64,000 nt of DNA from Iphione sp. A-MEVVRFRX5 (Eukaryota). A program made the translations under genes and the position numbers. Location of the stretch: assembly GCA_976226885.1 (NCBI GenBank), contig OZ320314.1, positions 63,240,001 through 63,304,000 on the forward strand, in the 5' to 3' direction. Below, piece after piece: positions 1,967-62,951 of the stretch. The notes under the pieces are model-generated. The model was given only the letters and a program-made list of their open reading frames with translations. It made no database searches and was not told the origin of the DNA. Positions within the stretch are counted from its first letter, which is position 1, and every line of letters starts with the position of its first letter.

Positions 1967-1976
1967 CAAGCCAGGT

Positions 1977-2876: not shown

Positions 2877-2967
2877 CCGTCGCTTGAGACTCTCTGTAGT
2901 GATGTCCTCCCTCTGCCTCTGTGCTGCGCGCTCGGCCAGCCCTCGAAGCCTGGGGTCTGTAATAGAC

Positions 2968-5696: not shown

Positions 5697-5706
5697 TTTT
5701 AGGCGT

Positions 5707-5823
5707 CTTTTCGAGCTCAGTGCAAACGACCAACTGACGCCTCGTAGGGCGGGAACGCCCTTATTTAAGAATGCACTGAGTCGCCCCCTGGTGTAATAAG
5801 ATCGTACCCTACAGTACGACACC
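5707..5823 (-). repeat. Ngaro split direct repeat A1
   Basis: Copy of 1707-1822; contains a TATA-like TTAAATA about 70 nt upstream of the ORF1 ATG. Confidence 0.88.
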
Positions 5824-6633
5824 CTTTGCCAAGTGATCCTTCTTGTTGCAGCGGAAACATCTCTTTCCACTGCCATGTCCACTGTTTCTTTCTCTAGTTG
5901 CACCTCTGGCTCCCTCTCTGGCTCCCTCTTGTGCCTCCTTGTTTCCCCTGGGGAAGTTACCCTTTCTGCATACTGCATTCACTTCGGTTGATGCTTCAGT
6001 CCCAGTCATCGACTTCATTTGTGCCTCGACCACTTCGTAGGCACGTGCGATATCCGCCAAGTCCTTTAGTGTGGCATTCCCCGTCTTCTCCAAGAACTTG
6101 CGTCTCAGTCGCTGTTCCCGACACTTGTCGATCAGCTGATCACAGATGGCCTCGTCAACATCCGCGAACTCACACGAAACAGCCTTGTGACGTAGCCAAC
6201 ACACAAACTGGTCGACTGTCTCCCCAGCTCCCTGCTCCAGCTGACGGAACAGGTGCCTCTCAAATGGAATGTTCACAGTCGGCACGAAGTGTGCGTCGAG
6301 CCGATCAATACACTTCTTGAGGGACATGCCTGTCTCCTCAGGTACAAGAGTGTAAAATACCTCCTGTAGCTCCATACCTCCAGTGTGTAATAGGAGAGCA
6401 ACCTTCTGCTCCTCCACAGTCACACCACGTGACATCACATACAGGTTGAAAGCTCGCTTCCAATGCTTCCACCTTGCACACAGAGTAGTAGGCTCTCCCT
6501 TGGGGTCGAAGGAAGGAAGACTACTCACCTCCAGTGTCTTTAGGCCATTGACAGTACCCGTACTGGCACCACTGCTGGAATTACTGCCACTTGCACGCTC
6601 AGCCATACTGCGTGTCTCCGTCGGTGCCATCAT
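5824..6633 (-). CDS. gag: N-terminal part of Gypsy gag (capsid region and first CCHC knuckle), interrupted by Ngaro
   Basis: Mag-like gag motifs (WKHWKRAF, LLLHTGG, FERHLFRQLEQ, DQLIDKC, LRRKFLE), CFRCNKKDHLAK|DQEC. Confidence 0.88.
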
Positions 6634-8515: not shown

Positions 8516-8529
8516 CATCCTCGTCGCCA
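8516..8529 (-). promoter_or_regulatory. Primer-binding site complementary to the tRNA-Ser(GCU) 3' end
   Basis: Minus strand TGGCGACGAGGATG; plus strand CATCCTCGTCGCCA equals the recalled 3' end of metazoan tRNA-Ser-GCT plus CCA. Confidence 0.8.
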
Positions 8530-8530
8530 T

Positions 8531-8690
8531 TGTAATATTCCCTTGCTGGGTAATAATAAGACAGATTTAACTTGGGTTTTCTACTCCTTTACTTCACTGC
8601 ACATGTGGTGTTACTCCATGGCTCCTGGGTGGTGGTGTCTCACTCAATGTTCACCCCTAACATGTTACCCGGTGGTACTGGTACACTACA
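8531..8690 (-). repeat. 5' LTR of the gag-PR Gypsy element
   Basis: Matches 277-436; followed by the PBS on the minus strand. Confidence 0.93.
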
Positions 8691-14143: not shown

Positions 14144-14547
14144 GATGTTCTATGTCACATATTTCGACCGGGTTTGTATGTGATATCATCAGATGTGCTA
14201 TCGTAATGATTTGATTGAAAATGATGGTGATGAAAATGATAACAGTGTAGATATGATGATCCGATATTTTGTCGATAGATGGATGAAATCAAAGATGGTT
14301 CAAACGAAAGATAAGATATATGGCGTGCCCTCCCGGAAAACCTGTTTTTGACAGTTAAGCAAAAAGTTTGCAAATATTCCAGTATATTCAAGGACAAAGT
14401 GAAATATACTTCATGGCTAGTACAATGCATATCATGACATCAAGTATTAGTCAATGTACAGACGCGGTAACAGTTTTAAGCAGCAACAGAGCGTGTTAGT
14501 CAAAGAGTTCTTTTCTGACAATTTATCAAGGTCACTGAATGAGTTAC

Positions 14548-15413: not shown

Positions 15414-16760
15414 TCAAATTTCTTCTAGGATCTTGCCCATTATATTTTTACCCAAGAAGGTTCCATCCGCGAGCGATTTTGAATTCATGTCCACGCCTGC
15501 TCCCCAAAAAGGGTGTTTATTAGCCTCAATGATCAGATCAGTGCCAGTACCTAGCAGTTCCAGTTTCAGGTCAATATTTTGGGCAAATTTGTGGGTTAGA
15601 ATGTCTTTCATTATGGTGCACCTCTCATCCTTCCATACCTGGCTGCTTGATATACGCTTCCTAAGTTTCTGCAACTTCTCGATGTCGTTCGTCGCTTCAA
15701 TTAAGGCAGCATCATCCTTTTTACCATGCTTAGTAGCTTTGGCCCAGGTGTATGCTTGTTCAGCAGAAATGCATCTTGTTTCACACCAGTCTAGACTGCT
15801 GGTTGTTAGGTTTGAGAAAGGCGCTCCTATACCAGAGAACATCACCTTCCCTTCTTTTGCTACTTGTCTGACTTTTGCTAGATTGTATTCCTCAGGTAGA
15901 GCATGCAGAGCATGGTGATGGTACCATTTTCCGTCAATTTCGATTTTATCATCTCGTAGACGGACCTTCTTCGAGGGTGCCAATTCTTTTACCCTCTTAG
16001 CAATGGCATTTAATTCCTGTCTAGTTTTACGTTCCTGTGGAGATTCATCGTTATTCAGCCAGATTTCTCGACCCTTTAGCTTTGATCTAGCTAATAACAC
16101 CTTCTCCTTGGCTTGCATACGTGCAAAACGGATAAACATTCCGCGTTTACTGTCTTTGTTTTTCCTGGCTGTTCTATATGCATAGTCTATATCATACTCA
16201 TGTATGTCAACCTCCATTGAGGCAAATAGGCCTATACACATCGCCACTGGCGATTCTCCAGGAATCTCATCAAGCCCATCAATATACATATTGTACCTCT
16301 TGTTTAAGACTTGTAGGTTTTGGGCAGATGTTGTGAGCTTATTAACATCGTGTGTGCATTTAATCGGCGCTAATTTATTTTTGTTTTCAGCTCGCAGTTT
16401 ATCGTTTTCAATTTTGAGGTTAGCAACCTCTTTTTTCAGGTCCGCTATCTCCTTGGTGTGACTTTTAACGGTCTCTACCGTTTTCTGTAGAGTATCATTG
16501 ATAGACTTTACCTCAGCTTGAATGCCTTTAGAAATGTTTAATTGTTCATTCGAGCTCTTCTTAATCTCTGCAAGTGATGTTTGCATAGTAACCTGTGTGT
16601 CGCCAGTTTCACCGTCAGCGGCATTGTCACTACCTCCCCTGGGCCTCTTTCTAGACTCAGATCTTCTGCGCTCCGTCCCCTTCACAATATTTATATCCCG
16701 GCGCGATCTATCGGACGGTTCTGCATCTGACATGTTTATAGAGGTTATAGTAAGGAACAT
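15414..16760 (-). CDS. LINE ORF1: basic N-terminus, coiled coil, L1-type RRM/CTD, fused C-terminal NADAR (YbiA-like) domain
   Basis: NMYIDGLDE, IDYAYR, FIRF, IWLNNDES (L1-type ORF1); FSNL, SAEQAY..AKA, W...R..IM...L..KF.QN..L...LL.TG, IEAN..PFWGAG, GKNIMGKIL (NADAR); first ATGs at 16760 and 16733. Confidence 0.85.
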   Translation of the reverse strand: MFLTITSINMSDAEPSDRSRRDINIVKGTERRRSESRKRPRGGSDNAADGETGDTQVTMQTSLAEIKKSSNEQLNISKGIQAEVKSINDTLQKTVETVKSHTKEIADLKKEVANLKIENDKLRAENKNKLAPIKCTHDVNKLTTSAQNLQVLNKRYNMYIDGLDEIPGESPVAMCIGLFASMEVDIHEYDIDYAYRTARKNKDSKRGMFIRFARMQAKEKVLLARSKLKGREIWLNNDESPQERKTRQELNAIAKRVKELAPSKKVRLRDDKIEIDGKWYHHHALHALPEEYNLAKVRQVAKEGKVMFSGIGAPFSNLTTSSLDWCETRCISAEQAYTWAKATKHGKKDDAALIEATNDIEKLQKLRKRISSSQVWKDERCTIMKDILTHKFAQNIDLKLELLGTGTDLIIEANKHPFWGAGVDMNSKSLADGTFLGKNIMGKILEEI

Positions 16761-18543
16761 ACTTACTTTTGTTGGGGGTAGTCTCCTTGTCAGTCTCTTA
16801 GATTGTTTGGCGACGGAAAAGTCAGGTAACAAGCAGGTAGCGGTAGGCCGGTTCACTGTATGCACCTGCTATTTTTAGAGTTTTAATACTTGATCCGGTG
16901 GTTCCGGTAGTTAGTCATGATCTTCTCTCATTATCGCCAACAAGCGAGCATTTTCCAGTTAATTTTCGTTGGTAGCACCATAGTTGTGTGTAATTTTGGT
17001 TTCAGGTAGGTCCACAGTACCTTATATACTGATATTACATGTAATTGCCATGCCAAATGTACACGATTTGTCAAAAAAGGTGTTATTCCAGGAGCGGGGC
17101 GGTTTTTGTGTGACTCACCTTGCCGCCATATTGCCAATCACCCATGGCACCATTGATGAAAATAGAAATAACAAGACTGAACACATAAGCTTCACCTCGT
17201 TTGTTTTTTTTCTAGGGACAGCACTGTTATGGAAAGTATTCACATAAGTGACAGGTACATGAAAGTCAAAATAGCTGAGACAATGAATACCCCGTCCAAA
17301 TTCATCCTAAAATTTGCAAAACTCGTCCTAATATCGGCAAAACGGCCAAATTTGTCCCCAACTCAGCAAAACTCTGCCAAATTCGTCCGAAAATTGGCAA
17401 AACTCTGCGAAACTCATCCGAAAATTGGCAAGACTCAGGTGACAGGTTGAAAATCAATATTAAAATATACAGAAAACAACCCTAAGATGAGTGGTCAGAT
17501 GCTGGAAAAGGCCGGAAATCGCTTGGTCGGTAATCGATAATCTATCATATAGATTATGTATTGAAAGAATTTCCATTCCTTAGTCAAATGGTCGGAATGG
17601 CCGGTTTGGTCGGTAATGGCATATGTCGGGAATCAAGATTCCACTGTATTTGGTTTAGTCATCACCATTTCCTGTCTGATTGTAGAATTTTACAAGAAAT
17701 GGAAACCGCCTGGGCTGATCGTAGGAAAAACCTTTTCTCTTGACATCAAACCATTATAATTTATCAGATACACTTGAATAACTACAGTTAAGCTTGGCTA
17801 AACAAATCCCACTTTCAAGCAAAGCCTATCAATGCAATCCACATTTTATCATTGTCAAATGAACCTGTGTCTTATGTCATTAGTAGAGGAAAAGGGAAAC
17901 TTCTTTCTGTTTGTCTAGGGAAACCTGTTCTCCGTATGTTTCTGAGATACCATTTCTTTTGATATCAAACCACCATAACAGACGATACTTTGGGATAATT
18001 GCAGTCAACATTTGTTAGTTACTCTTGGATGTACACATACCAAAGTTACCAAAGGCCATCAACGTTATGCAAAAAATACAGTCTGCATATTAACATGTCG
18101 TCAATATTCAATAGCACAGGTCAGCAGAACAACTACTACAGTCAAAATTACGTAAGTGTTTCAAATATTAACTCATATATTGGGGGTCTGGGTTTCAAGA
18201 AGTGGTTCCATCATAGGCAGACTAATTATAATTTTGTGCTTTATGTTTCTATTGCAAAGAATTACAACCAACTCTGTCTGATCATTTAGTTGTGACAGTT
18301 AGCATTTCTTATAGAAACTCGCAAAAACGTGATATCATGAACCTTATCATCCTATCTTAACATCTTGATACTGGATGTATAAAAAAACTTTAGTACTGCT
18401 TCTATCATCATATCAACAAGCAACAACCAAAGCTTACAATCTCAGCTTTTCAATGCCACCTTTATTTAATCTCTACAGTGAGGCTTTCTTACCGAAACAA
18501 ACAAAACCACTGCAGCATGATTTGCCACATTACAATGTATACA

Positions 18544-35572: not shown

Positions 35573-35586
35573 TGTAATGTGATAAT

Positions 35587-36207
35587 GTTACCTGTGGCAC
35601 CACAGCCACTCGTATTGTACTTAGCGAACTCTAAGACTTAGTAGTAACATTGCCTGCGGCACCACAGTTGTGTAGATTGTAGTAGTAACGTTGCCTGTGG
35701 CACCACAGCCACTCGTGTTGTACTCTAAGACGTAATAGTAATACTGCCTGTGGTTCCACAGCCACTTGTGTTGCACTTGATGAACTCTAAGACTTAGTAG
35801 TAACGTTGCCTGTGGCACCACAGTTGTGTAGATCGTAGTAGTGACGTTGCCTGTGGCACCACAGTCACTTGTGTTGTACTTGATGAACTCTAAGACTTAG
35901 TAGTAACGTTGCCTGCGGCACCACAGTTGTATAGATTGTAATAGTAACGTTGCCTGTGGCACCACAGCCACTTGTGTTGTACTTGATGAACTCTAGGACT
36001 TAGTAGTAACGTTGCCTGTGGCACCACAGTCACTTGTGTTGTACTTGATGAACTCTAGGACTTAGTAGTAACGTTGCCTGGGGCACCACAGTCACTTGTG
36101 TTGTACTTGGTGAACTCTAAGACTTTAGTGCATGTGTACTGGAGAGTAAGCTTAGGGCCGCCTGTGGCACCACAGTCATTTATGCTGGATGGCCTGTGGT
36201 ACCACAG
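35587..36207 (+). repeat. U3 tandem array: 12 units with palindromic core CTGTGGCACCACAG, mostly alternating 62-bp and 41-bp units
   Basis: Units counted by eye; 11 units in the 3' LTR (about 46536-47094). Confidence 0.9.
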
Positions 36208-36354
36208 GCATATAGGATGTCTAAGGTCACCTTGAACCCTGGATGGCAAGGCACCTGCAATATGATTGGTAGACAGAAAAAAATCTTTGGAATGTTGTAG
36301 CCTTTTTATTCCATGACTGATACATTGTACTAATCACATGACCAGGAGTTTGGC

Positions 36355-36390
36355 TATAAATATGGGCCCGGTGTGGCCAATAAAACAGTT
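36355..36390 (+). promoter_or_regulatory. LTR core promoter: TATAAAT (36355), AATAAA (36379), Inr-like CAGTT (36386)
   Basis: TATA to Inr spacing about 32 nt; poly(A) signal lies just upstream of the predicted start. Confidence 0.6.
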
Positions 36391-36672
36391 TGCACTTGGA
36401 CCTCACTAGTGGACCTTGTTGATTTGGGATGTAACAAACCCACTTGGATTACCTAGGGTTGGCACTTGGATGTAACCGCACTGGGACTACAGTGAAGTAA
36501 CTGAGACAGGATAGCACTAGACATAGCTGGATCTACCAAGTGGGAGATTTAACAGAGAATTATCCTGGAGTTAGGACTTGGATAAAATATCACTGGAATT
36601 ATAGTGGAGTAACTAAGCGAGTTGGACTTAGTTGGATTACACCAAGTGAGGAAGTCAGCCATTAAATTACAC

Positions 36673-36690
36673 TGGTGGCAGCGGTGGGAT
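36673..36690 (+). promoter_or_regulatory. Primer-binding site complementary to tRNA-Leu (AAG/UAG)
   Basis: TGGTGGCAGCGGTGGGAT, 18 nt complementary to the recalled tRNA-Leu 3' end ATCCCACCGCTGCCACCA. Confidence 0.88.
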
Positions 36691-36703
36691 AAACATTGAC
36701 AAC

Positions 36704-37543
36704 ATGGCTACACACTACGTGGCAGTGGACGACGAAGTGCAGATTCGGGTTCCTAGCCCAGCACCAGCGGGCAGCGATGAGGAAGAAGGTGAGCAATTTG
36801 AACTGGCCCCTGAGCAGCCATTGAAAATGAATGCCATGAAGCCAGAGCGCTTCGATGGTAAGACTGTGGATTGGGACAGTTGGATAGGCCAATTCACGGA
36901 GTGGGCGGATGCTTGCAAGTGGAATGAGAATACCCGCTGTTCCGCATTAACACTATCACTCACTGGCCCAGCGCGAATGTATTATGGGGATCTACCGCCA
37001 GAGGATAAGCGGGATTATGGGTCACGGGTCACTGCGTTGGAGCGACGGTTCGGCAGGCGACGCGACCGAGTGGTGGCCATGCAGAAGCTCTCCAGTATCC
37101 GTAGGCAAAAGGACGAGGACGTTCGCGACCTGGCCGATCGAGTGAGGCGTCTGGTGAGGAGTGCATACCCTGATGTGTCCGGGGAAACCCGGGAGCTGGC
37201 AGCCGTAGCCGCTTTTCAACGATCTTTGGCCGATTCTCTTCATCTCAAGTGCCTGGAGGCGAAGTGTACAACTTTGGACGCCGCTGTACAGGTGGTGGAG
37301 ACCCAAGAGCGCTTCGTCGCTAAGAAGATACAGGTAGTACAGGCCCCCTCAACTCCGGCGTGGACAAAACCTATGGAGGAACTTACCAAGGAGCTCGCGA
37401 AAATCCGAGAGGAGATGCAGACCCGAGAGGAAGTACGAAACAGGAAGCCACGCTACACAAAATGCTTCCAGTGCGGGCAGGACGGCCATTTTCGACGGGA
37501 CTGTCCTGAGTTGCAGGGAAACGGATCCCAGTCGGCCAACTAG
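36704..37543 (+). CDS. gag: Gag (279 aa) with CCHC zinc knuckle
   Basis: PERFDG, WDSWIGQF, LSLTGPA, DLADRVRRLVRSAYP, CFQCGQDGHFRRDC. Confidence 0.93.
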   Translation: MATHYVAVDDEVQIRVPSPAPAGSDEEEGEQFELAPEQPLKMNAMKPERFDGKTVDWDSWIGQFTEWADACKWNENTRCSALTLSLTGPARMYYGDLPPEDKRDYGSRVTALERRFGRRRDRVVAMQKLSSIRRQKDEDVRDLADRVRRLVRSAYPDVSGETRELAAVAAFQRSLADSLHLKCLEAKCTTLDAAVQVVETQERFVAKKIQVVQAPSTPAWTKPMEELTKELAKIREEMQTREEVRNRKPRYTKCFQCGQDGHFRRDCPELQGNGSQSAN

Positions 37544-37550
37544 GCCGGGA
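37516..37550 (+). promoter_or_regulatory. Predicted -1 ribosomal frameshift signal (G GGA AAC plus downstream stem)
   Basis: Slippery heptamer in gag frame; -1 frame is open for 23 codons into pol; CGGCC-AACTA-GGCCG hairpin follows. Confidence 0.75.
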
Positions 37551-37584
37551 TGGTACGACTGGAATAACACTAACGGGGACTACA

Positions 37585-40500
37585 ATGGAACCAGGTCAGG
37601 GACCACGGCTGAAGGTGAGCCTTGATGGAAGGTCAGTAGAACTGTTGATTGACACTGGTGCTGAGGTATCCATTGTTAACCCCCGTGTGGTCCCTGGCCT
37701 GGAGGGAGAAGGGTCCCCGACACGTATCACTGGGGTGGGGGGACATGTTATCCCTACCTTAGGGCATCATACCTGTGTACTGGAGATAGCAGGGGAGAGC
37801 TTCAGTCATTCCTTCCTAGTAGCGGAGGTGGAAGAGGATGGGATCTTGGGAAGCGACTTTCTGTGTCAACACCGCGCAGTGATTGATCTTGCTAGAAAAG
37901 AGATAGCTCTGAACCGGTGCTGCCGAGTGGCTAGACAGGAGACAGAGGTACGAGTGGCCCATGACGTGACATTACCGGCTGGGGCAGGGCTAGCTGTGCT
38001 CATTAACCACCATGGAGAGACACCCCTGATGGTAGAAGGACTATTAGAGTCACAGTGGAGACAGGGGGTTGTTGGGATGAGATGCCTTGTTGAGTCGACC
38101 TTGCCCATGTGGAATACCACCGACACAGAGATATTCCTGAGGCAGGGGACACAGATTGCTGTGGGGGTGCCTACCCAACCCTGGGAGGAAATCCCCGCGA
38201 GCCCCAAGAAAGGTGTGTATGCAATCAGGAAGGCAGTAGCGGATGTCATCCAAGAGTTGGTGAAGCCTACGGATGGGACCCTTACATCTGAACAGCAGGG
38301 GCAACTGAGAAGATTACTAAGAAAACATAGCCCTACTTTTGCCCGGGACCGAGATGACTTGGGGCGCACAGATGTGGTGCAGCACCGCATTTTCACTGAG
38401 GACCGCCATCCTATAAAACAACCCCCGAGGAGACTCCCCCTTTCCAAGAGACAGGAAGAGCGGAAACTAGTTAAGGAGATGAAAGATCTGGGGGTAATCG
38501 TTGAAAGCAGCAGTCCTTGGTCTAGCCCCGTGGTGATGGTAAAAAAGAAGGACGGCACCACTCGCTTCTGTGTCGACTATCGAAAACTAAATGGAAAGAC
38601 GAAGGTTGACGCCTACCCCTTGCCCAGGATCGATGACTCCCTGAGTACCCTGGCGGGGGCCAAATACTTTTGCTCACTTGACCTGGCGTCCGGCTACTGG
38701 CAAGTCAGGATGCACCCAGAAGACCAGGAGAAAACGGCGTTCTCCACCTCGGTTGGGTTGTATGAATTTACGGTAATGCCATTCGGTCTGATTAACGCCC
38801 CAGCAACCTTCGAACGACTAATGGATACAGTGTTGCGCGGCTTGACCTGGGAACAGTGCTTAGTGTACTTGGATGACATTTTGGTCTTTGGGAGGACCTT
38901 CCAAGAAACCATGGCTCGTTTGGATCGGGTGCTGACACGGCTAGCTGCGGCTGGGCTCAAACTCAAGCCCTCTAAATGTCAGCTGTTCCTGCAAGAGATA
39001 GGTTTCCTGGGGCACATCGTCTCACCGAAGGGGGTGGCTACCGATCCCAGTAAGACGAAGAGTATAGAAGAGTGGCCGACCCCGACCTGCACGACAGAAG
39101 TGCGAGCCTTCCTGGGTCTCTGTTCTTACTACCGCCGGTATGTGCCACACTTCGCCAATGTGGCCGCTCCTCTGCACAAGTTGACCGGTACTAAGACGCG
39201 ATTTACCTGGGGAGACCCGGAAGAGGCAGCATTTCGGGATCTGAAGGCGGCTCTAGCGTCTAGCCCAATACTGGGATACCCACAGCCAGAGGGGCGGTAC
39301 TTCCTGGATATCGACGCCAGCAATGTGGGCATTGGAGCTGTACTAGCCCAGAGGCAGGAGGAACGAGAGGTGGTACTGGCCTACTACAGTCGTAGCTTGA
39401 GCGAGACAGAGCGACGGTACTGCGTGATGCGTAGAGAGCTGCTCGCTGTGGTGGCGGCCCTGAAACACTTCCACTTTTACTTGTACGGACAGGAAGTCAC
39501 CGTGCGGACCGATAATGGGGCGGTAAGTTGGCTGCGCCGTATTAAAGACCCAGAGGGGCAGCTAGCCCGTTGGCTGGAACGTGTGGGACAATACAACATC
39601 CAACTGGAGCATCGAGCGGGTCGCTTGAATGCAAATGCGGACGCCCTCTCCCGTAAAACCTGTAGGCAATGCAAACAAGAACACCTAACGGAAGACGCAG
39701 TGATAGAAAAAGTACGAGCTGTGACTCGCAGCCAGTCAACGGGAACTGGACATCCGGAACTACGGATGGCCCAACTCCAAGATGAGGAGGTAGGGCCAAT
39801 CCTTAGAGCTATGGAATCGGACCCCCAACAGCCTGCCTGGGAGTGGGTGGCGCCAGCATCGGCTGCAACGAAGAGCCTTTGGAGACAGTGGAGCCGACTT
39901 ACCGTGAGCGGAGGTCTGCTGCAGAGGAAGTGGACAGGACTTGGCGGGGAGCCTTCCCGGCTGCAGGTGGTCTTGCCAGTCGCCCTTCGAGAAAAAGCCT
40001 TCAAGGAAGTACATGCGGGCCAGATGGGAGCCCACCTAGCTGCCGAACGAACTACCTACCTGGTAGCCCTCGCCTATTACTGGCCGGGGATGACAGGGAA
40101 CATCGCAGCCTGGTGCAGAGACTGTCACTGTGCTCTGCTCAACCGGGATCCTTTCCGGCCGCAGGTGCCTCTGAAAACTTACCTGTCGGGGGAACCCATG
40201 GAACGATGGTCAATGGATGTGGCCGGACCCTTGCCTCTAACTGCGCGAGGAAACCGCTACATCCTGATGGTGGGGGATCACTTCACAAAGTGGCTTGAGG
40301 CGTTCCCCCTACCAGACCAGAAAGCCCCAAAAATCGCCCGGATCCTAGCCGAGGAGGTAATCGCTCGCTATGGTTGTTTCCACGAGCTGCACAGTGACCA
40401 GGGAACAAATTTCTGCAGCGAAATCATCACGGCCCTCTGTGACTATCTGCACATCAAGAAGACCAGGACCACCCCGCGACACCCGCAAAGCGACGGGTTC

Positions 40501-41124
40501 ATTGAACGTAGCTTCCGGACCTTGGGGAAGATGATCAAAGCACATTGCCACGAGAGCCAAGATGAGTGGGACACAGCACTCCCTTTCCTCATGATGGCGT
40601 ATAGGGCTTCACCACAAGCTAGCACCGGGTACACCCCGAACTACCTGATGTTCGGACGTGAGGTTACTCTTCCGGTGCATGCGATGGACGGGCTTCCGTC
40701 GAAAAACCCAGAGGTGGAAGACTTACCTGACCCGGTAGGGGAAATGTTGCGACGACTTCAAGAGGCATATGGTAGAGTCCGGAAGAACCTGAGGACGGCG
40801 GCTCGATCCCAGGCCCGAGCTTATGATCGGAGAATGAAGGGGGAAGCTTTGAAGGCGGGGGCGGTGGTATGGCTCCATGAGGCACAGCCACCAAAAGGGA
40901 GAAGCCCGAAGATTCACTTCCCCTGGTCAGGGCCGTGGCTAGTTACCCGAGCTCTGGATGATGAACGACTGATTGTGCAACGCTCTAAACAAGCGAGGCC
41001 GAGAGTAGTACATCGGAATCGGTTACGGTTGTATCGCGGGGAACGATTACCCCGGTGGATCATCTCCTGGCGGAGGAAGGCGGAGCTCTCCGCCCCAGAT
41101 GGCGGTGGCAGGGTCTCCGTATAG
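37585..41124 (+). CDS. pol: Pol: protease, RT, RNase H, integrase (1179 aa from first ATG; probably expressed as gag-pol)
   Basis: LIDTGA, YLDD, DIDASNVGIG, ADALSR, H..QMGAH...C, DVAGP / SDQG / ERSFR, PWSGPW. Confidence 0.96.
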   Translation: MEPGQGPRLKVSLDGRSVELLIDTGAEVSIVNPRVVPGLEGEGSPTRITGVGGHVIPTLGHHTCVLEIAGESFSHSFLVAEVEEDGILGSDFLCQHRAVIDLARKEIALNRCCRVARQETEVRVAHDVTLPAGAGLAVLINHHGETPLMVEGLLESQWRQGVVGMRCLVESTLPMWNTTDTEIFLRQGTQIAVGVPTQPWEEIPASPKKGVYAIRKAVADVIQELVKPTDGTLTSEQQGQLRRLLRKHSPTFARDRDDLGRTDVVQHRIFTEDRHPIKQPPRRLPLSKRQEERKLVKEMKDLGVIVESSSPWSSPVVMVKKKDGTTRFCVDYRKLNGKTKVDAYPLPRIDDSLSTLAGAKYFCSLDLASGYWQVRMHPEDQEKTAFSTSVGLYEFTVMPFGLINAPATFERLMDTVLRGLTWEQCLVYLDDILVFGRTFQETMARLDRVLTRLAAAGLKLKPSKCQLFLQEIGFLGHIVSPKGVATDPSKTKSIEEWPTPTCTTEVRAFLGLCSYYRRYVPHFANVAAPLHKLTGTKTRFTWGDPEEAAFRDLKAALASSPILGYPQPEGRYFLDIDASNVGIGAVLAQRQEEREVVLAYYSRSLSETERRYCVMRRELLAVVAALKHFHFYLYGQEVTVRTDNGAVSWLRRIKDPEGQLARWLERVGQYNIQLEHRAGRLNANADALSRKTCRQCKQEHLTEDAVIEKVRAVTRSQSTGTGHPELRMAQLQDEEVGPILRAMESDPQQPAWEWVAPASAATKSLWRQWSRLTVSGGLLQRKWTGLGGEPSRLQVVLPVALREKAFKEVHAGQMGAHLAAERTTYLVALAYYWPGMTGNIAAWCRDCHCALLNRDPFRPQVPLKTYLSGEPMERWSMDVAGPLPLTARGNRYILMVGDHFTKWLEAFPLPDQKAPKIARILAEEVIARYGCFHELHSDQGTNFCSEIITALCDYLHIKKTRTTPRHPQSDGFIERSFRTLGKMIKAHCHESQDEWDTALPFLMMAYRASPQASTGYTPNYLMFGREVTLPVHAMDGLPSKNPEVEDLPDPVGEMLRRLQEAYGRVRKNLRTAARSQARAYDRRMKGEALKAGAVVWLHEAQPPKGRSPKIHFPWSGPWLVTRALDDERLIVQRSKQARPRVVHRNRLRLYRGERLPRWIISWRRKAELSAPDGGGRVSV

Positions 41125-41899
41125 GAAGCCGGAATAAGGAGATGGGCGAAGAAGACGTTCGGGACGGGTGTCCTGGAGACTCACATATGAGTCTGAAGAT
41201 AGGAGGACAAACATCCTGGCTGCGCTCGAAATGGTTCGTGGGGAGCGGTGGACGGCCCGGAGCCACTGAGGCTCGAAATAACCACCAGAGGCGTCACAGG
41301 TGGCCTGAGGGTTTATCGACCGGCAACGACCTGTGGGAGGGGAGGCCTCCCTGGTAGCACTCGAAAAGTCCGCGGGGCGATTAGGGAACGCCCGGAAGCG
41401 CATGTCACGCTCAAAAATTCCCTGGAGGAGGATGAACATCCTGGGGTTTACCCGGCCCAAAAGTTCATGGAGGAGGGCGGACCTCCTGGAGTTGCTCGAA
41501 AGGCCTGGCGAGGGAAACGAACACCCTGGAGCGCGCAAAAAGTTTGTGGAACGGGTAGGGAGAGAACGTCCCGGAGGCCGTGGAGCTCGAAACGGTTCGG
41601 TGTAAGAGACGCGGAGAGATCGGAGGATGATGTCGGCATCATTCCCCCGGGAAACATTATGACAGGCAGAAGAAGTAATGAAGCCTAGTTGCGGTATGTG
41701 TCCTCTGGACGGGAGAGAAGACCAAGCTCCAGTCCTTGTCCTCTGGACGGGGGGGTGGCCGAGTTGCCGTCCTTTTCCTCTGGAAGGAGCGAAGCACTCG
41801 GGATGGTGGACGACGGAAACCGAGCTGCGGTCCTTGTCCTCTGGGCGGGCCGTGCTAGAACAAAAGAAAGACGGAGAGACAGTTGAACTATGAACAAAT

Positions 41900-41905
41900 T
41901 TTAAT
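41900..41905 (-). terminator. Predicted poly(A) signal (ATTAAA) of the antisense accessory gene
   Basis: Minus-strand ATTAAA about 125 nt after the stop, followed by a U/GU-rich tract. Confidence 0.5.
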
Positions 41906-42028
41906 TCAAATCACCAACAATGGAACGAAGTGGGTAACAACTGCGAGTGGCGGACGATGAAAGTCATATATATACAAGTTACGGTCGCGGGATGAGTCTA
42001 TGTACAGATGGACGAGCGGAAAGTCCAC

Positions 42029-42728
42029 TTAAGAAGAGGAGGGAGGGGCATCCTCATCCTCGTCCTCGTCGGAGATTAGGATGGGATGCCATGCCAGGTC
42101 CCCGGGCTGCAGGTCGGGGTACCACGACGACAGGAAATCGGCCGGCCAGGAGGAGAGGGAAGCCCGCCCGAGGACTGGCCCCACATCAGGAGAACTGGAT
42201 GGGGCAGGCGAGCGGGATGGCGTGTCCACCGGCGAGCTCGTGTCCTCCGGGGAAGGCGACCGAGGACAGGTGGCGGAGGAGGTAGTGCTCGTAGAGTCAA
42301 CCTCGGTGGACGAGGCCACACCGCTAGAACAGCTATATGAGGGCGAGGCGCTGACGTCAGAGCTCGAGGAGGGCCAGGGGTCCAGCTGACTGGAGGTCAT
42401 CGAACAATGAGACCAGTCGTCCTCATCGGTGTGGCTGGATTCGACGTTGTCGAGGGAGGCGAGGTAGCTGGATACCTCTCCCAAACCGAGGTCGGGGGAC
42501 ACCGAGTCCTGGCGGGACCACAGAGGATCGTCGCTGCGGGGAAGAACTGGCTGGATCACCGGGTGCACAGAGATGCCCACCCAATGATCCGGGCCGTACA
42601 ACCGAATGTTGCCCGGAGCTGGGATGTACAGCGGATGGGTGGACATGGGATGCAACCCATACACCCTTATCGTAGGCCCAGGGGTGCCCACATCAATAAA
42701 CCGATAATACGGATCCGGGGGCTGAGAT
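42029..42728 (-). CDS. Antisense accessory gene, exon 2 (Pro/Tyr-rich segment then Ser/Asp-rich acidic tail)
   Basis: Acceptor T28-AACCCTTCTCTTGTTCCTCTTTCTAG at 42729; phase matches exon 1; open to the stop at 42029. Confidence 0.62.
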
Positions 42729-42750
42729 CTAGAAAGAGGAACAAGAGAAG

Positions 42751-42786
<36 letters not shown>

Positions 42787-42890
42787 GAACTCACCTGGAA
42801 CCTCCAAAGGAACATCAGTAACCGGCTTCAGGAAATCCAACATGGCAACTGGTAACTGGAGAAGGCCCCTAGCTGCATGTAAGTGCCTAC

Positions 42891-43024
42891 CTATCCTCCA
42901 CGGGGGGATAACCTTTCTGCTCTTCAGGGAAGTAATCCTCTCCCACAGGAGGACACCTCTCCTGATCTTCTGGTAGAAAGGCCCCTCCCTGGGAGAGGCC
43001 TGCAAGGTACGCTGGTAGTTCCAT
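42891..43024 (-). CDS. Antisense accessory gene, exon 1 (MELPAYLAGLSQGG...PPVEDR)
   Basis: ATG 43024 (alternative 43051); donor AG|GTAGGC at 42890; spliced ORF 277 aa. Confidence 0.6.
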
Positions 43025-43054
43025 GGGTGTGTACTGTCGGACGTCTAACATCGG

Positions 43055-43090
43055 ACTGACGGGTGACCATCGGTCGCACGCTCTTATATA
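43055..43090 (-). promoter_or_regulatory. Antisense core promoter: TATATAA (43090-43084) and Inr TCAGT (43059-43055)
   Basis: TATA starts 33 nt upstream of the Inr A; ATG 33 nt further downstream. Confidence 0.62.
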
Positions 43091-43108
43091 GCGAACGGAT
43101 AGAATTGA

Positions 43109-43914
43109 CTGGGGAACCGCAGTCGAGCGACAAACTGCGTAATCGTGCCTTGACAATACGACTGCGGAACCACAGCGAACAGATGGAATCGACTGGGGAA
43201 CCGCAGGCGAGCGGGAAACTGCGTAATAGCGCATTGATAATATGACTGTGGAACCACAGCGACATGGAGCATACGACAACAAGACTGCGGGGGCGCAGGC
43301 CGAGGGGACACCTTACCCCTGATACAGCCGACCATACCTTAAGAGGAAGCAGAACAGGAATTCGTGGGCTGTGGTACCACAGTCGAGGAACGACTCGGTG
43401 ACTGGGGACCCACAGTCGAGGAGGGGGGAATCCCGGAAGCGGACAACCCAAACATCCGCTAGCCTCGTTGTCGTTCTTGGGGAAGCCCTCCTGCGCGTTC
43501 GGGGAAGAGGAGCGTTTACTGTTCGAGGAAGAACTGATCGTAGAGAAGAAGACTTCCAAAAAGGAGGAGGAGAAAGACGGGCCACGAAGCAGAGGCAACT
43601 GCGGAACCACAGCGAGAGAGGAAATGCCGCGTTGAACACCAGAGGGAGGAGAATTGACCAGCCTCCTACGAACGGCGGCCGACTTCGTGGCGACTGCGGT
43701 CCCGCAGTGAGTAGCGGCTGCGGCCAACCTCCGTAAGTAAGTAACTGTGGAACCGCAGGGACAGTCGACAGAGGGGGACGGCCTATGACAACTGAGTTAC
43801 GGACCGAAAGTTGCCGATTTTTCTACAGACGGCGGCCGGCTTCGTGGCGACTGCGGTCCCGTAGTGGGTAGCGAACGGCCAACCTCCGTAGGTAAGACGA
43901 CTGCGGAACCGCAG
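43109..43914. promoter_or_regulatory. Internal array of about 11-12 palindromic CTGBGG-NN-CCRCAG sites between the divergent accessory genes
   Basis: Copies at 43109, 43162, 43193, 43246, 43369, 43402, 43599, 43694, 43745, 43851, 43901 (degenerate 43285); embedded in about 84-bp and about 157-bp duplications. Confidence 0.8.
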
Positions 43915-43972
43915 TGATAGTCGACAGGGGAACGGCTTATGACAACTGGGGGACCCCATACGACTGTTGAGG

Positions 43973-45493
43973 ATGCCTCGTGTCAGAATTGAAACGCCCC
44001 GGCTTCCAATTATATGGAAGACAGAGGATCCCCTGCCCCCGGGGGCTGAGTTTTGTGAACTGTGCCTGCCCCGGAAACGTCCTTTCTTTAGGGGATTCTC
44101 GTTTGACCGCCACAAGGAGGAGAAACATCAGGGGAAACGGGGACGAGATCTCCTGTGTCTGTGGTGCCCGAGCGCCATTACCGATGAACACTACTGGGTG
44201 ACGCACCAGCGTCGTTATCACCCGTGGGTTGTTGCTTTGGGGTTAGCGGAAAAACCCTATCGTGTGTTGTGTGATGCTGCTCCCCATGGGGGGAAGACGG
44301 TGCAAGCCCCAGACGACGAACTGACAGACATCCTGGTGCGAGCCCGACAACTGAGACAGGACGGGTGGTATATGAGTGAAGAGGAGGCCATGACCCATCT
44401 GGCTGGGTGTCCACGACGAGCAGCCCCACCCCCGGTCCCGCGACAGATACGACTGGGGTCTCCCCCTCGTGACGAGCAAGACATGGAAGAGGAGGAGGGG
44501 GGCCCTGGGGCTCCCATGGGGGGAGGGGAGCCCGAAGTACCCGCGGGTCCCGACCTACCAGACCTGGAGGGGGCTGAGGGACCGGCACCTGGCCCACCCG
44601 CTCCCCATCAACTCGAGGGGGGTGACATACCTGACGGGGGGGATGACCCCCCAGCGCCGGCCCCAGAGGAACCTGACTACCCCGTGGCCCCTGACGAAGC
44701 TCCAGTGCAGCCAGGAGACCCTCCAGGCCTCAACGACAGACAGGACGGGGCGGAAATGGACGACTTGGCCTTGGTAATGGGGCATTTGCGGGCTGCAGTT
44801 GAGCCAGGGGCAGCGGCCGCGGCCGCCCAGCCCGGCCTCCCGCTTGGCGATGGAGAACAGGCCGCACCCGCCCCGACATCGCCGACGCTACCCGAAGGAC
44901 GTCTAGCCCAGAAGGTTAGACACTTTCTACCCCCCGACTACGTCGAACCGGTGTCACGACGCATGCGGGATGTCCTAGATGGGCTAGTCTGGCCATACAC
45001 CCCGGCTCTGAGGGCTACCATGCTTCCGGCTGTCGTGCGCCTCCCGTCGTTCATCACTTGGCCCCCGCGAAGGTGGGAAGAAATGTCAGGTGCCCAACGT
45101 ATGATGGCCAGCGCATCTTTGGCTTGGGTATTACACCTTGCTGAGGGGGACGGGCCTCCTCCCGACTCCCTCTTAGAGCCTTTGCGCAGGCGGCCCACCC
45201 TACTTCTGCCCGCCGTAGCCTTGCCCGACCACCAGGACTGGGGACGACTGGGGTCGGTCTACGACCTTCATAACTCGACTGTGGACGCAGCACAGAGCGC
45301 TTTGGAGGCTATGCGGTGGGGACCAAGTAAAACACGTATATACGATGTGCGGTGGCAGAGGGAGGTCAGGGAGGTCACAACGCGACGACAAGCCACCCAA
45401 CCGACGGTACACTACGTATGCTTAGGGGCCCCTCCATGCCAGCACCCGGTGGCTGGGGGCGACGTGGGTCCCGCCTTACCACCCGTTGTTTAG
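43973..45493 (+). CDS. Accessory ORF3: two C2H2 zinc fingers, acidic/Pro-rich middle, unrecognised C-terminal domain (506 aa from ATG)
   Basis: CELC-x15-H-x4-H and CLWC-x12-H-x4-H; long open frame; no signal peptide or clear TM helix. Confidence 0.75.
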   Translation: MPRVRIETPRLPIIWKTEDPLPPGAEFCELCLPRKRPFFRGFSFDRHKEEKHQGKRGRDLLCLWCPSAITDEHYWVTHQRRYHPWVVALGLAEKPYRVLCDAAPHGGKTVQAPDDELTDILVRARQLRQDGWYMSEEEAMTHLAGCPRRAAPPPVPRQIRLGSPPRDEQDMEEEEGGPGAPMGGGEPEVPAGPDLPDLEGAEGPAPGPPAPHQLEGGDIPDGGDDPPAPAPEEPDYPVAPDEAPVQPGDPPGLNDRQDGAEMDDLALVMGHLRAAVEPGAAAAAAQPGLPLGDGEQAAPAPTSPTLPEGRLAQKVRHFLPPDYVEPVSRRMRDVLDGLVWPYTPALRATMLPAVVRLPSFITWPPRRWEEMSGAQRMMASASLAWVLHLAEGDGPPPDSLLEPLRRRPTLLLPAVALPDHQDWGRLGSVYDLHNSTVDAAQSALEAMRWGPSKTRIYDVRWQREVREVTTRRQATQPTVHYVCLGAPPCQHPVAGGDVGPALPPVV

Positions 45494-45629
45494 AGAGCCG
45501 ATAGCCATATGTTCTACCCTAGTAGGGCGTGATGGGTGACACAAATTGTTATGATCGGATGTTTGATGCTAAGCGCTGTTATCATTGTTGACTGTGATGT
45601 ACCCCTACCGTTGTTACTGCAATTAACTT

Positions 45630-46445
45630 AATCATTACCTCCTAAGGAGGCTTGGCCAGATTACCCCGTGGATAGATGATCATTACCTCCCGTGGAGGCT
45701 TGACCGGATTACAGTAAGGATGTTAAATGAAAAGGGGACTGTACCCCACAAAAAAAACTGTTATTGGACGATGCATAAGCTGTGATTGGTTGTTGTTATA
45801 ATACTGTGTTGTTGCCTAAGTGGATCACTACCTCCTAGGGAGGCTTTGCCAGAGTGTAGTAAGGATGTTACAGGAAAGGACAGAAGGGGACTGTACCCCA
45901 CAAAAAGAGTGTTAAGGAGTTGTTTTCAACCAATGTATAAGTAGTGATCATTGATCGTATGCTGTTGTGATTTTTTTTAGATGAATCAATTACTACCTCC
46001 TAAGGAGGCTTTGCCAGATTGGACCCCAGGGGGGGTAAGAGTAGGTATCCCAGATTGTTTTGATAAGGAATGTCTGTGATCTTTTGTTTATTGTGATATC
46101 TTGTGTTACCTAGACAATTACTACCTCCTACGGAGGCTTTGCCAGATTCATCCACATTTACTCAAGAGTTGTTAGAGTGAGGATGTTAACAGTTAAAAAA
46201 GGGGGACTGTACCCCCACAAAAAGAGTGAGGCTCTTACAGTTACTGGGATGTTTATCTGTGATCTTTTGGGTTATTGTGATATCACTACCTCCTAGGGAG
46301 GCTTTGCCAGATTCAATGATTAACTTGTATACTGAGGAAAAAATTTGCTGCTTAGGTGACCATTACCCCCTATGGGGGCTTTGCTAAATTTACCAGTATT
46401 TATCCAAGGAGTTAGTAGATCAACTGTTATCCTCTACGGAGGCTT
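45630..46445 (+). repeat. Dispersed array of 8 CCTCC-NNN-GGAGG dyads and 3 GGGG-ACTGTA-CCCC dyads upstream of the PPT
   Basis: Dyads at 45638, 45686, 45831, 45996, 46124, 46289, 46366, 46431; second type at 45734, 45886, 46201. Confidence 0.85.
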
Positions 46446-46508
46446 ATGTTGGCTCAGGATGTACTTCTCAGGGAAACAGGTTTTCACTTCCCCCGGTAGA
46501 CTATTTTT

Positions 46509-46521
46509 AAGGTGAGGAGAG
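46509..46521 (+). promoter_or_regulatory. Polypurine tract
   Basis: AAGGTGAGGAGAG directly before the 3' LTR TGTAATG. Confidence 0.75.
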
Positions 46522-47558
46522 TGTAATGTGATAATGTTACCTGTGGCACCACAGCCACTCGTATTGTACTTAGCGAACTCTAAGACTTAGTAGTAACATT
46601 GCCTGTGGCACCACAGTTGTGTAGATTGTAGTAGTAACGTTGCCTGTGGCACCACAGCCACTCGTGTTGTACTCTAAGACGTAATAGTAATACTGCCTGT
46701 GGTTCCACAGCCACTTGTGTTGCACTTGATGAACTCTAAGACTTAGTAGTAACGTTGCCTGTGGCACCACAGTTGTGTAGATCGTAGTAGTGACGTTGCC
46801 TGTGGCACCACAGTCACTTGTGTTGTACTTGATGAACTCTAAGACTTAGTAGTAACGTTGCCTGCGGCACCACAGTTGTATAGATTGTAATAGTAACGTT
46901 GCCTGTGGCACCACAGCCACTTGTGTTGTACTTGATGAACTCTAGGACTTAGTAGTAACGTTGCCTGGGGCACCACAGTCACTTGTGTTGTACTTGGTGA
47001 ACTCTAAGACTTTAGTGCATGTGTACTGGAGAGTAAGCTTAGGGCCGCCTGTGGCACCACAGTCATTTATGCTGGATGGCCTGTGGTACCACAGGCATAT
47101 AGGATGTCTAAGGTCACCTTGAACCCTGGATGGCAAGGCACCTGCAATATGATTGGTAGACAGAAAAAAATCTTTGGAATGTTGTAGCCTTTTTATTCCA
47201 TGACTGATACATTGTACTAATCACATGACCAGGAGTTTGGCTATAAATATGGGCCCGGTGTGGCCAATAAAACAGTTTGCACTTGGACCTCACTAGTGGA
47301 CCTTGTTGATTTGGGATGTAACAAACCCACTTGGATTACCTAGGGTTGGCACTTGGATGTAACCGCACTGGGACTACAGTGAAGTAACTGAGACAGGATA
47401 GCACTAGACATAGCTGGATCTACCAAGTGGGAGATTTAACAGAGAATTATCCTGGAGTTAGGACTTGGATAAAATATCACTGGAATTATAGTGGAGTAAC
47501 TAAGCGAGTTGGACTTAGTTGGATTACACCAAGTGAGGAAGTCAGCCATTAAATTACA
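46522..47558 (+). repeat. 3' LTR (1037 bp)
   Basis: Matches the 5' LTR minus one 62-bp unit; followed by the GTAC TSD. Confidence 0.95.
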
Positions 47559-48471
47559 GTACTTTACTGTGTTATCTGCCCTATGTAAGTGAAATGTTCG
47601 TTGAGTATATTTGCTATTGCAGTGTTGTCAATAATAGTGGTGTTGATTGTTTTCAGTTATCTAATTGTCAGGTCATCGTCTTTCTTGTTTGGTAGCAGTG
47701 TTTTGAGTTCTTTCCAATACTTTGCTGGTTTGTACTTGTATTGTGCTAGTCTGGATTGTATATAATTCCTTTTAGCTCATCTCATTTTGGAATTTAGTCG
47801 GTTTCTTAATTTCCTTGAAATTGCCAAATGTTTAGGGTCCTTAGATAGTTTATATTGTTTCAAAATATATTTTTTTTGCCTTCTTTGTTGAGTGATGTCT
47901 TTATCTATTCATTTCCGCATGTTAATTGGGATTCTCTTGTATTTGAAAGGGGCATGAGTGTTTAACTTGCTTTGATAATATGATATATTTGTTCCCAGTG
48001 TTGTTCAGTAGTGGTGTTGGTGTTGATGTCTGTAAGTGCTGTTGATATTTCTTTGGCAAAAGTTTCCTGATTAAAGAAGGTGTAGTCACAGACATAGATT
48101 GTTTCATATTTCAGTTTGACATGAGGATTTCTTCTAGTGTATGTCCAGAAGTGGTCGCTGAGATTTATTGAGATAGTGCCTGATTTCTCATATTTCACAG
48201 GTGTATTTACTAATATAAGATCAATTCTTGTAGAACAGGTTATTGTAATTCGAGTTGGTGTGTGAATAAGATTTTTGAATCCAAGTGAATTTTCCAAAGT
48301 TTTCAATTTCCTAAATTGGGGTGTTCTAGTCTTGTTACAGTCAATGTTAAAGTCTCCTAGTATAATTGTTTCATTACTATGACTGTCAATTAAGTTCAGG
48401 ACATTCTGGAGTTTACTAAAACATGCATCTATATTCCTGCTTGGTGGTCTGTATAGTGTTAATATAAACAA
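47559..48471 (-). pseudogene. Decayed LINE ORF2, endonuclease part (5' fragment of the element split by the Gypsy insertion)
   Basis: LYRPP, ILGDFNI, PTRIT, RIDLI, SDH motifs. Confidence 0.85.
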
Positions 48472-48949
48472 AGAGACACAACAATTCTTTTTTTTTAAAA
48501 TGTTTCAGTTATTAAGTTTATTTTTGATTGGAAGAATTTTCGGGTAATATCTCACTGAAAGATGAAGGTGTGATTGAGAAATGAAAAAATATTAGTCAAA
48601 GTGTATTGCATGACTGCAAACAACAGTATTTTATGCAGCTACACAGGGGTATTAACAAAGTAGTTATCATATACTGTTAATGATCTTAAGTGTCTAAACT
48701 AGCGATAAGAGGAGCATATACAGAGACACTGGTAAAAATATACCGAGAATATACAGAGAAACTGGTATAAATATAGAAGTAGTTGAATAATCGCACTTGT
48801 CACTATGCCAAATATTAATTAATTAATTAATCACATATAGTGAAACCTTAAAAATTAAAAAGCATACCACAAATGAACCAAATGTCACCCGGAGTCATAT
48901 AGGTGTCAATTAGAACAATATTTACTACTACGACAATATTTACTATGAT

Positions 48950-62225: not shown

Positions 62226-62951
62226 TTACCTTCTCCTGTATTCATCAAACTGAGGAGAATGCCATGTCTTGTAGCAATTCCTGTCAACTTTCAAGCAGAG
62301 GTTAACTCTGCAACTTGGCTCTGGACACCACCATGGGGTTTTTTGTTCTTTCTTCAATAATGTGTAGCAAACATAGCAGTTGCGGCGGCCTCCAGAAGGA
62401 ACAGGCATGTGTGATATGCAATAGTCCTTCTTCTCCAGCAGTTGTCGAGGGAGTTGAAATAGAGGGTGTTCTTCATCCTCAGATATATTCGCCAACTGTC
62501 GCACAAGTTCCTCTCGGAAGGCTAGATGGCTGTATCCTGCAGGTCTGTTAAGTCTCTCATCACCTGGATGTGCTGCACGCCAAGCTTCAAACATGATGTA
62601 TGAGTTGAGTATTGCCATGTCCAGAATGTGGAAGAAAAGCACCTTCCACCAACGTACAGACTTCAACAAGATGCAGTACCTCTTGAGAAGTTGATCTGAC
62701 AAATCTACGCCGCCCATGAAATGGTTGTAGTCATGGACGGCGGTAGGTTTCCTGGTTGTGACTTGGTGGTACTGCCGTTGATTATTCTTTACTGTTCTTG
62801 TGGTATTCACATAGTCGTTTGCAGAGTGGTATGTAGAACACACACACACAGGCTTGCGATCTATCCACTGCAGGCACAAAATACCATCGACCCTCTTCCA
62901 GCGCATGTCACCTCTAGCATGTTGTTTGACCCAGGACTTGTCTTTCATGCA
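62226..62951 (-). CDS. piggyBac transposase (PGBD4-like), last exon with third catalytic Asp and Cys-rich domain
   Basis: Acceptor TATAG at 62952; WIDRKPV, YNHFMGGVDLSDQ, WWKVLFFH, CYVC...CPEPSC...C...C. Confidence 0.9.
   Translation of the reverse strand, partial: CMKDKSWVKQHARGDMRWKRVDGILCLQWIDRKPVCVCSTYHSANDYVNTTRTVKNNQRQYHQVTTRKPTAVHDYNHFMGGVDLSDQLLKRYCILLKSVRWWKVLFFHILDMAILNSYIMFEAWRAAHPGDERLNRPAGYSHLAFREELVRQLANISEDEEHPLFQLPRQLLEKKDYCISHMPVPSGGRRNCYVCYTLLKKEQKTPWWCPEPSCRVNLCLKVDRNCYKTWHSPQFDEYRRR

Follow-up and report, generated by a model that had tools for sequence, protein, structure and literature searches.

We found that a 64,000-nucleotide stretch of DNA (hereafter the window) contains an intact Ty3/gypsy LTR retrotransposon housing a split antisense gene that lies back to back with a divergent sense gene, ORF3. 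As far as the DNA goes the antisense gene is real, its splicing being predicted from the sequence. The overall picture that we draw from the two genes, to which we give about an even chance of being right, is one of some ten coexisting subfamilies, each with a private zinc-finger code on its LTR and internal promoter and each with a splice-gated antisense protein that would bind SUMO and counteract silencing. The parts of the antisense gene, in the order in which they would be transcribed, are as follows.

43055-43090, minus strand: core promoter, TATATAA (43090-43084) and initiator TCAGT (43059-43055); sequence, near copies
42891-43024, minus strand: coding part of exon 1, 134 nt, ATG at 43024; sequence, alignment
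42729-42890, minus strand: intron, 162 nt, from donor D1 (phase 2, AG/GTAGGC at 42890) to acceptor CTAG at 42729; sequence
42789-42794, minus strand: second donor D2, CAG/GTGAGT, 96 nt behind D1 and just before the poly-T tract; sequence, 70 loci
42029-42728, minus strand: exon 2, 700 nt, 232 codons, stop at 42031-42029; sequence, alignment
42050-42085, minus strand: predicted SUMO-interaction-like motif (SIM), PILISD plus an acidic run; pattern in intact copies
41870-41905, minus strand: poly(A) signal ATTAAA (41905), followed by a U/GU-rich tract; sequence

The initial annotation had proposed a complete spliced gene on this strand, and each of its signals (TATATAA, initiator, ATG, donor, T28, CTAG acceptor, stop and ATTAAA) was located at the positions given here, with T28 occupying 42782-42755 in the intron. 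The two frames join as had been claimed, and translating the spliced sequence reproduced a predicted product of 277 aa. Absent from the annotation were D2, the SIM-like tail, and the divergent zinc-finger gene whose candidate sites recur in the LTR. Two details are particular to the window or its close relatives: the intron ends in CAG in the other 34 copies aligned, and an extra in-frame ATG at 43051 is restricted to some copies of the window's subfamily. That an antisense intron should outlast the retrotransposition cycle follows from established biology; it would persist because the sense genomic RNA does not splice it out. In one other locus an LTR-like piece (L100:5401-5516) lies within the antisense intron beside the poly-T.

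The annotation had tied its gene model to the conservation of splice sites and frame in related elements, and both turned out to be conserved. A DNA search of the 1.18-Gb host genome, in which 40 of 95 candidates were scored, gave 40 long matches among those scored, at 83-100% identity. Thirty-nine loci were aligned with the window and, once five partial loci were excluded, 35 rows spanned ATG to stop. In 35/35 rows exon 1 measures 134 nt and both donor and AG acceptor are kept, intron length ranges from 151 to 199 nt, and exon 2 is open in 30/35. For variants common to at least two copies, exon 1 had a pN/pS of 0.21 and exon 2 one of 0.12, with zero stops, and third codon positions were 5 to 10 times more variable than first and second positions. 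The opposite-strand frame that shares third positions gave similar ratios (0.20 and 0.18) but contained 2 and 3 stops, and the remaining four frames all exceeded 2; the plus-strand frame over exon 2 was accordingly rejected as a coding frame. We conclude from this codon pattern that the antisense frame is under purifying selection.

The same architecture reaches well beyond the near copies. Genome protein searches (150 matches scored in each) recovered subfamilies at 50-60% identity in which the match begins at the acceptor, and the series of signals from TATA to poly(A) recurs in subfamilies merely 35-55% alike in protein. Among 86 sampled loci with an exon-2 match we found: (i) an in-phase AG in 77; (ii) a poly-T in 76; (iii) a phase-2 donor in 70; and (iv) a TATA, an initiator-like site and, 55-90 nt behind the TATA, an ATG in 74. 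Behind the stop, AATAAA or ATTAAA is present in 67/70 intact copies, as compared with 2/70 on the other strand. These signals in diverged subfamilies, together with purifying selection on the frame, bear out the proposal of a spliced, protein-coding antisense gene. Searches with degenerate patterns matched exon 2 at least 523 times and ORF3 605 times, while reversed controls gave 0 and 5. As the sets of 86 and 70 loci were picked via the accessory genes themselves, a sample picked via integrase served as a check (12 of 150 integrase matches, most of them belonging to a group that the earlier lists lacked). Both accessory genes were present in all 12, 11 of which make up a further subfamily. 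The two-gene module thus appears, from its sequence distribution, to be clade-wide in this genome.

The intron offers a choice of donors. D2 outscores D1 in 63/70 loci and fits at least 8 of 9 consensus positions in 66/70, and a stop codon lies within 13 nt of D1 in 69/70, something that a phase-2 GTAR donor in part brings with it. Splicing from D2 would retain the stop behind D1, giving a 45-aa peptide in the window, and the resulting message would be a likely substrate for decay because that stop lies far upstream of the junction. Our preferred reading is that the antisense gene undergoes regulated unproductive splicing. It is also possible that splicing proceeds in two (recursive) steps through the AG/GT at D2. 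A productive three-exon form was rejected as a general rule, since the stretch from D1 to D2 can form an open middle exon in 25/70 loci and cannot do so in 45/70, the window among them. The idea that this stretch holds a covarying RNA structure was likewise rejected: in six roughly aligned copies a compensatory change was seen in 0/26 predicted pairs.

The element that carries the gene spans 35573-47558. It is a young Ty3/gypsy copy in which we located both LTRs, primer-binding site, polypurine tract and a target duplication (4 bp, GTAC, flanking both ends). Its other features are listed below.

35573-36671, plus strand: 5' LTR, TGT...ACA, with 12 CTG(T/C/G)GG-NN palindromes in U3; sequence
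36673-36690, plus strand: primer-binding site, which we take to be of tRNA-Leu type; sequence
36650-37543, plus strand: gag frame, stop to stop, with a zinc knuckle; ORF and domain search
37510-41124, plus strand: pol, open, with protease, RT, RNase H and integrase in that order; domain search
43091-43972, no strand: spacer between the divergent genes, 13 gapped palindromes, all of CTG(T/C/G)GG type; shuffle test
43973-45493, plus strand: ORF3, 506 aa, with two predicted C2H2 fingers (codons 28-52 and 62-83), an acidic linker and a conserved helical C-terminal domain; alignment, model
44183-44194, plus strand: predicted recognition helix of finger 2, positions -1 to +3 (DEHY), which co-vary with palindrome type; ORF3 comparison
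46508-46521, plus strand: polypurine tract; sequence
46522-47558, plus strand: 3' LTR, shorter by one repeat unit than the 5' LTR and 99.0-99.7% identical to it; alignment

The 5' LTR has a TATA-like site near 36355 and AATAAA near 36380, and compared with solved structures the RT is nearest to that of Ty3. The interval from pol to the 3' LTR is 5.4 kb and houses both the antisense gene and the 506 codons of ORF3 counted from its ATG. The element has no env, and an env-type ORF3 as in errantiviruses was ruled against: fusion-protein homology was absent for either extra gene in Pfam and among solved structures, and ORF3 begins with Cys/His fingers. Further repeats occupy the non-coding parts of the interval, namely short GTCCTCTGG/CCTGG-type repeats at 41124-41900, lying between pol and the poly(A) site of the antisense gene, and repeats with a TACCTCCT..GGAGG core at 45600-46480, between ORF3 and the polypurine tract (repeat family D6); in other subfamilies a second family of palindromes lies behind ORF3. 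Elsewhere in the window there is another repeat-bounded element at 489-8690 (RT frame 2968-4854, several unannotated minus-strand ORFs), an ORF with a NADAR domain at 15414-16868 (E 2e-20) beside a LINE at 11369-14149, an endonuclease fragment at 47962-48504 and, at 62226-62951, a fragment of a PF13843 transposase, presumably of piggyBac type. These other elements, together with the type of promoter, suggest an animal host.

The antisense product was described initially as having strongly acidic segments and as belonging to no recognizable family, and both descriptions hold. It has 42 D/E against 10 K/R, and Pfam returned no family for the exon 1 and exon 2 frames at E values up to 1. The product of exon 2 opens with about 60 aa that are conserved and beta-rich, followed by an acidic Ser/Pro-rich linker and a C-terminal segment that is conserved again; there are short conserved Trp/Pro motifs and nine S/T-P sites. 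Across 30 proteins, 40-55% identical between subfamilies, 22 residues are invariant. The exon (42032-42727) encodes zero lysines in 232 residues, and lysines are few in other subfamilies; lysine scarcity is a trait known from proteins working near ubiquitin or SUMO ligases. An AlphaFold model of exon 2 reached a mean pLDDT of 35 with no confident fold. A homologue search with exon 2 found nothing among proteins of length 127-406, and four weak matches of an exon-2 profile among 1.84 billion representatives were rejected, all being repeat proteins. One ESM Atlas query gave no match and another gave only rows under 0.9 that included zinc-finger clusters; metagenome contigs, viral contigs, phage records and Rfam held no homologue of the module genes, and solved structures gave one low-complexity match or none. 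These blanks do not imply absence outside this genome, because the collections searched hold few split eukaryotic genes.

The clearest functional hint is at the C terminus. The tail is of the P-[IVM]-x-[IVL]-[SDE] type in 66/70 intact exon-2 products, and in several subfamilies it is the extreme end of the protein. SIMs combine a hydrophobic core with a Ser/acidic flank in the description given by PMC8616421. On this pattern the motif probably binds SUMO, although SIM patterns are degenerate and in some subfamilies a charged residue falls within the core (PIEVSD). There is no sign of a RING finger, in that the exon-2 alignment has no invariant Cys and Pfam no match, and no obvious nuclear localization signal was seen in the antisense protein.

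For ORF3 the zinc-finger assignment rests on invariant Cys/His spacing plus weak matches. C28, C31, H47, H52, C62, C65, H78 and H83 (C-x2-C...H-x4-H) are invariant in 30/30 aligned proteins, and the first 160 residues were modeled at block pLDDT values of 67-93. By probability the top Foldseek rows are fingers of Tramtrack and CTCF, none of them significant (2drp, prob 0.54, E 1.3), and PF18658 matches weakly in 5/30 members (best E 0.0036). Homologue searches with ORF3 were blank and a wide fold search gave helical-bundle noise alone (best Z 5.0). An additional SIM-like motif, [VM][IV]DLT, is present in 5/30 ORF3 proteins.

What these fingers might read is suggested by the 882-nt spacer. Its palindromes are 14 bp long (6+2+6), and 200 shuffles gave a mean of 3.7 and a maximum of 11 of any type. 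The same palindrome type fills U3 of both LTRs, while the flanks are without it. Other subfamilies use other half-sites (CTACGG, TYGGGG, TCGTGG, YCGTGG, TGGCGG, TTGYGA, TCGTGT, TTGGGN and TTGSGT, in classes that we named ourselves), each common to the spacer and the LTR side. Within each of 10 elements the spacer and downstream/LTR site types agree, and they differ between types; the ends of the LTRs were determined in the window and 9/10 extended loci, and elsewhere "downstream" denotes whatever lies behind ORF3. In a few of the loci sampled there was no clear site. In two related loci (L146 and L148) a non-palindromic TCGGGCCC-type site occurs 13-14 times in the spacer and three times downstream, and their subfamily has a finger-2 helix identical to that of the TYGGGG class. 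RNA hairpins were rejected as the meaning of the palindromes: C-A mismatches between arms are as common as G-U (18 vs 12, 23 vs 27 and 4 vs 5), and arms that vary independently point to DNA half-sites, unlike RNA stems. The spacer palindromes are likely, to judge from their sequence, to be operator sites of a two-way internal promoter.

A relationship between finger and site can be seen when ORF3 proteins are compared. In pairs less than 62% identical, all four residues at helix positions -1 to +3 are common in 16/16 same-site pairs and 0/180 different-site pairs, although 15 of those 16 come from one site class and the pairs are not independent. The helix is the top four-residue window of 359; in exon 2 one such window does as well (16/0; 1 of 147), and, taken singly, other columns of ORF3 rank equally high. 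With single-class pairs, an equal exon-2 window and equal-ranking columns, the link between helix and site must be put down in part to ancestry, and spacer, ORF3 and 3' LTR are in any case physically linked. We consider a helix-masked ORF3 tree, made by a quick method from 24 rows and read post hoc, to be better evidence for a putative finger/site code than the pair counts. In this tree Tyr at +2 goes with TTG sites in two separate branches, one of them sister to a Gln/TCG lineage; inside the CTG clade a His-to-Tyr change accompanies CTG-to-CTA; and a distant lineage combines a DVHS helix with TCGGG sites.

The two genes evolve apart. In the window's own subfamily ORF3 falls to about 60% identity as compared with 85-100% for exon 2, and an ORF3 so variable beside a steady exon 2 argues against a tight interface between ORF3 and the antisense protein. 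Over 43943-44500, ORF3 is 64-73% identical among near copies whose RT is 92-99% identical, which suggests ORF3 swapping between close subfamilies.

A plausible scenario is that the antisense gene forms half of a regulator pair, its product being an acidic, SUMO-binding helper that keeps promoters active beside ORF3; we put this specific form at a little under even. The spacer would act as a two-way internal promoter. ORF3, in the step of which we are most confident, would bind the palindromes, probably as a dimer, and thereby activate its own gene, the antisense gene and its subfamily's LTR. Splicing would then gate the antisense protein, D1 yielding the 277-aa product and D2 a truncated, decay-prone message, a step that we hold to be slightly better than a coin toss. 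The SUMO-binding role of the tail is a good deal safer, not far below that of ORF3 itself. If the protein has a nuclear role, its net effect would by a narrow balance be positive, either blunting SUMO-dependent silencing or co-activating; SUMO is needed for piRNA-guided silencing in Drosophila, according to 10.1101/533091.

The sign of this effect could be the opposite, with ORF3 an activator and the antisense protein a brake whose SUMO-binding tail recruits host repressors in a negative feedback. We regard this as unlikely, though it is the strongest of the alternatives. There is precedent for such brakes in complex retroviruses, where HBZ acts against Tax (as described in PMC3185765) and Bet against Tas (as described in PMC13220597). 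SIM proteins often recruit repressors, and, as expected of a feedback gene, the antisense gene lies downstream of ORF3-type sites. Elements that have lost pol bear on the question from both sides. In these derivatives gag and ORF3 are open in all four lineages seen, and the antisense gene has been lost or has decayed in two (intact in L048 and L057, decayed in L154/L156/L163, not found in L145/L149/L150); one set of such loci (L151/L154/L156/L163) had been considered as a module on another pol lineage, a reading that was rejected as they are pol-deleted derivatives. That two pol-deleted lineages spread after losing the antisense gene speaks for a brake. Nevertheless, a brake that works in trans should be shed by autonomous copies, and these show strong purifying selection and presence of the gene in 12/12 integrase-picked loci. 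The pattern in the derivatives suggests instead that the antisense product behaves like Pol and can be supplied in trans, and its loss there combined with conservation in autonomous copies fits a needed, trans-supplied product better than a brake. We therefore consider a helper more likely than a brake, on these patterns of loss and retention.

An improbable alternative, somewhat weaker than the brake, is that the antisense protein acts after transcription, in export of unspliced genomic RNA (like CERV or Rev), in assembling particles, in entering the nucleus or in removing a host restriction factor, independently of any promoter function of ORF3. CERV of Cer1, a spliced, phosphorylated accessory protein required for RNA export (as reported in PMC10309623), is a model for this, and the S/T-P sites of exon 2 and the separate evolution of the antisense protein from ORF3 are in keeping with it. 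Nonetheless, the excess of acidic over basic residues is unlike RNA-binding export factors, and the invariant tail points to SUMO-rich nuclear sites.

More doubtful still is the idea that host factors read the palindromes, with ORF3 doing something else and the antisense gene being a lone accessory gene like gene23 of maize Grande. Several palindromes hold what we take to be a Runx-type core (ACCACA), and linkage and ancestry account for part of the co-variation. Host factors would nevertheless have to explain about ten site types built on one 6+2+6 architecture in a single host, and site types that shift jointly in two unrelated contexts while tracking the finger-2 helix, convergent cases included. 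Finally, a functional antisense RNA in place of a protein, or an artefactual gene model, is very improbable: a stronger D2 would yield mostly non-coding RNA, and non-coding antisense RNAs are known from micropia (as described in PMC7264820), but neither squares with the codon-position pattern, the pN/pS of 0.12, the 22 invariant residues or the phase-2 donor in 70/86 loci, and the antisense transcript would stop about 780 nt short of pol.

The means by which retrotransposons become active in spite of host silencing are largely unsettled. Plant and fungal gypsy elements are known to have additional antisense ORFs between pol and the 3' LTR; these lack an established function in the accounts given by PMC7264820, PMC11963269 and PMC8365987. 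Split antisense genes such as the present one escape ORF-based transposon annotation. In hundreds of young, intact copies there is now a testable system, with a predicted DNA-binder, about ten natural site variants and a predicted SUMO-binding partner. In the openly accessible full-text literature that was searched, no animal LTR element with a divergent zinc-finger/antisense pair turned up, and the available portions of PMC8220671, PMC13524379 and PMC5408684 contain no module of such kind. Protein, profile and structure searches with the module genes found no homology to Tas, Bet, HBZ or VANC.

The closest known systems in layout are maize Grande gene23, rice RIRE2, Retand/TRP28 and Botrytis Boty brtn, which likewise carry an extra conserved gene on the opposite strand in the interval from pol to the 3' LTR; the Grande antisense ORF has its own internal promoter, as here, and a regulatory role has been proposed for such ORFs (both points as described in PMC7264820 and PMC11963269). 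Unlike the Grande/Retand group, the present elements have a two-donor intron, a SIM-like tail, a divergent zinc-finger partner with matching LTR sites and, apparently, an animal host, and in Pfam searches the TRP28 domain (PF04195) was absent from the exon 1, exon 2 and ORF3 frames. CERV of C. elegans Cer1 is also a novel accessory protein made from a spliced mRNA by an animal LTR element; it is a single RNA-export protein with no sequence match to ours, and the available text of PMC10309623 describes no divergent gene pair. As for the tail, it resembles IVISDS of ICP0 and IIVLSDSD of Daxx (as given in PMC3174244 and PMC8616421), and the SIMs of herpesvirus ICP0/IE2 and of Daxx likewise have a hydrophobic core with Ser and acidic residues behind it, the motif alone being in common; ICP0 is a SUMO-targeted ubiquitin ligase, and neither its RING finger nor any other homology is present here.

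HTLV pairs a sense regulator, Tax, with the spliced antisense accessory gene HBZ/APH-2 (as described in PMC3185765). HBZ, a bZIP factor, has its start within the 3' LTR, whereas the antisense gene here has an internal TATA promoter and no bZIP, and Tax is without a zinc-finger code of its own on palindromes, unlike the predicted ORF3. Foamy viruses have two non-envelope accessory genes at the 3' end, Tas and Bet, with an internal promoter and splicing as a control point, and Tas is a DNA-binding factor acting on both the internal promoter and the LTR (as described in PMC13220597), as we predict for ORF3. Their genes are both sense and share one pre-mRNA; ours are divergent, in an element with a Ty3-like RT and no env. 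VANC of the Arabidopsis VANDAL elements is similar in being an element-encoded, family-specific protein with target repeats in non-coding DNA (as described in PMC5735166). VANDALs are plant DNA transposons, unlike the present case with its predicted C2H2 pair and antisense partner gene. Family-specific repeats in the element's own non-coding DNA are present here, as they are for self-targeting regulators of the Tas and VANC kind. An antisense intron alone was already known; the new part would be a two-gene module with a site code. If our reading is correct, an envelope-less animal retrotransposon has a retrovirus-like circuit together with a natural series of finger-to-site codes, and self-encoded, sequence-specific regulation of the sort seen in complex retroviruses and plant VANDAL elements extends to animal LTR retrotransposons.
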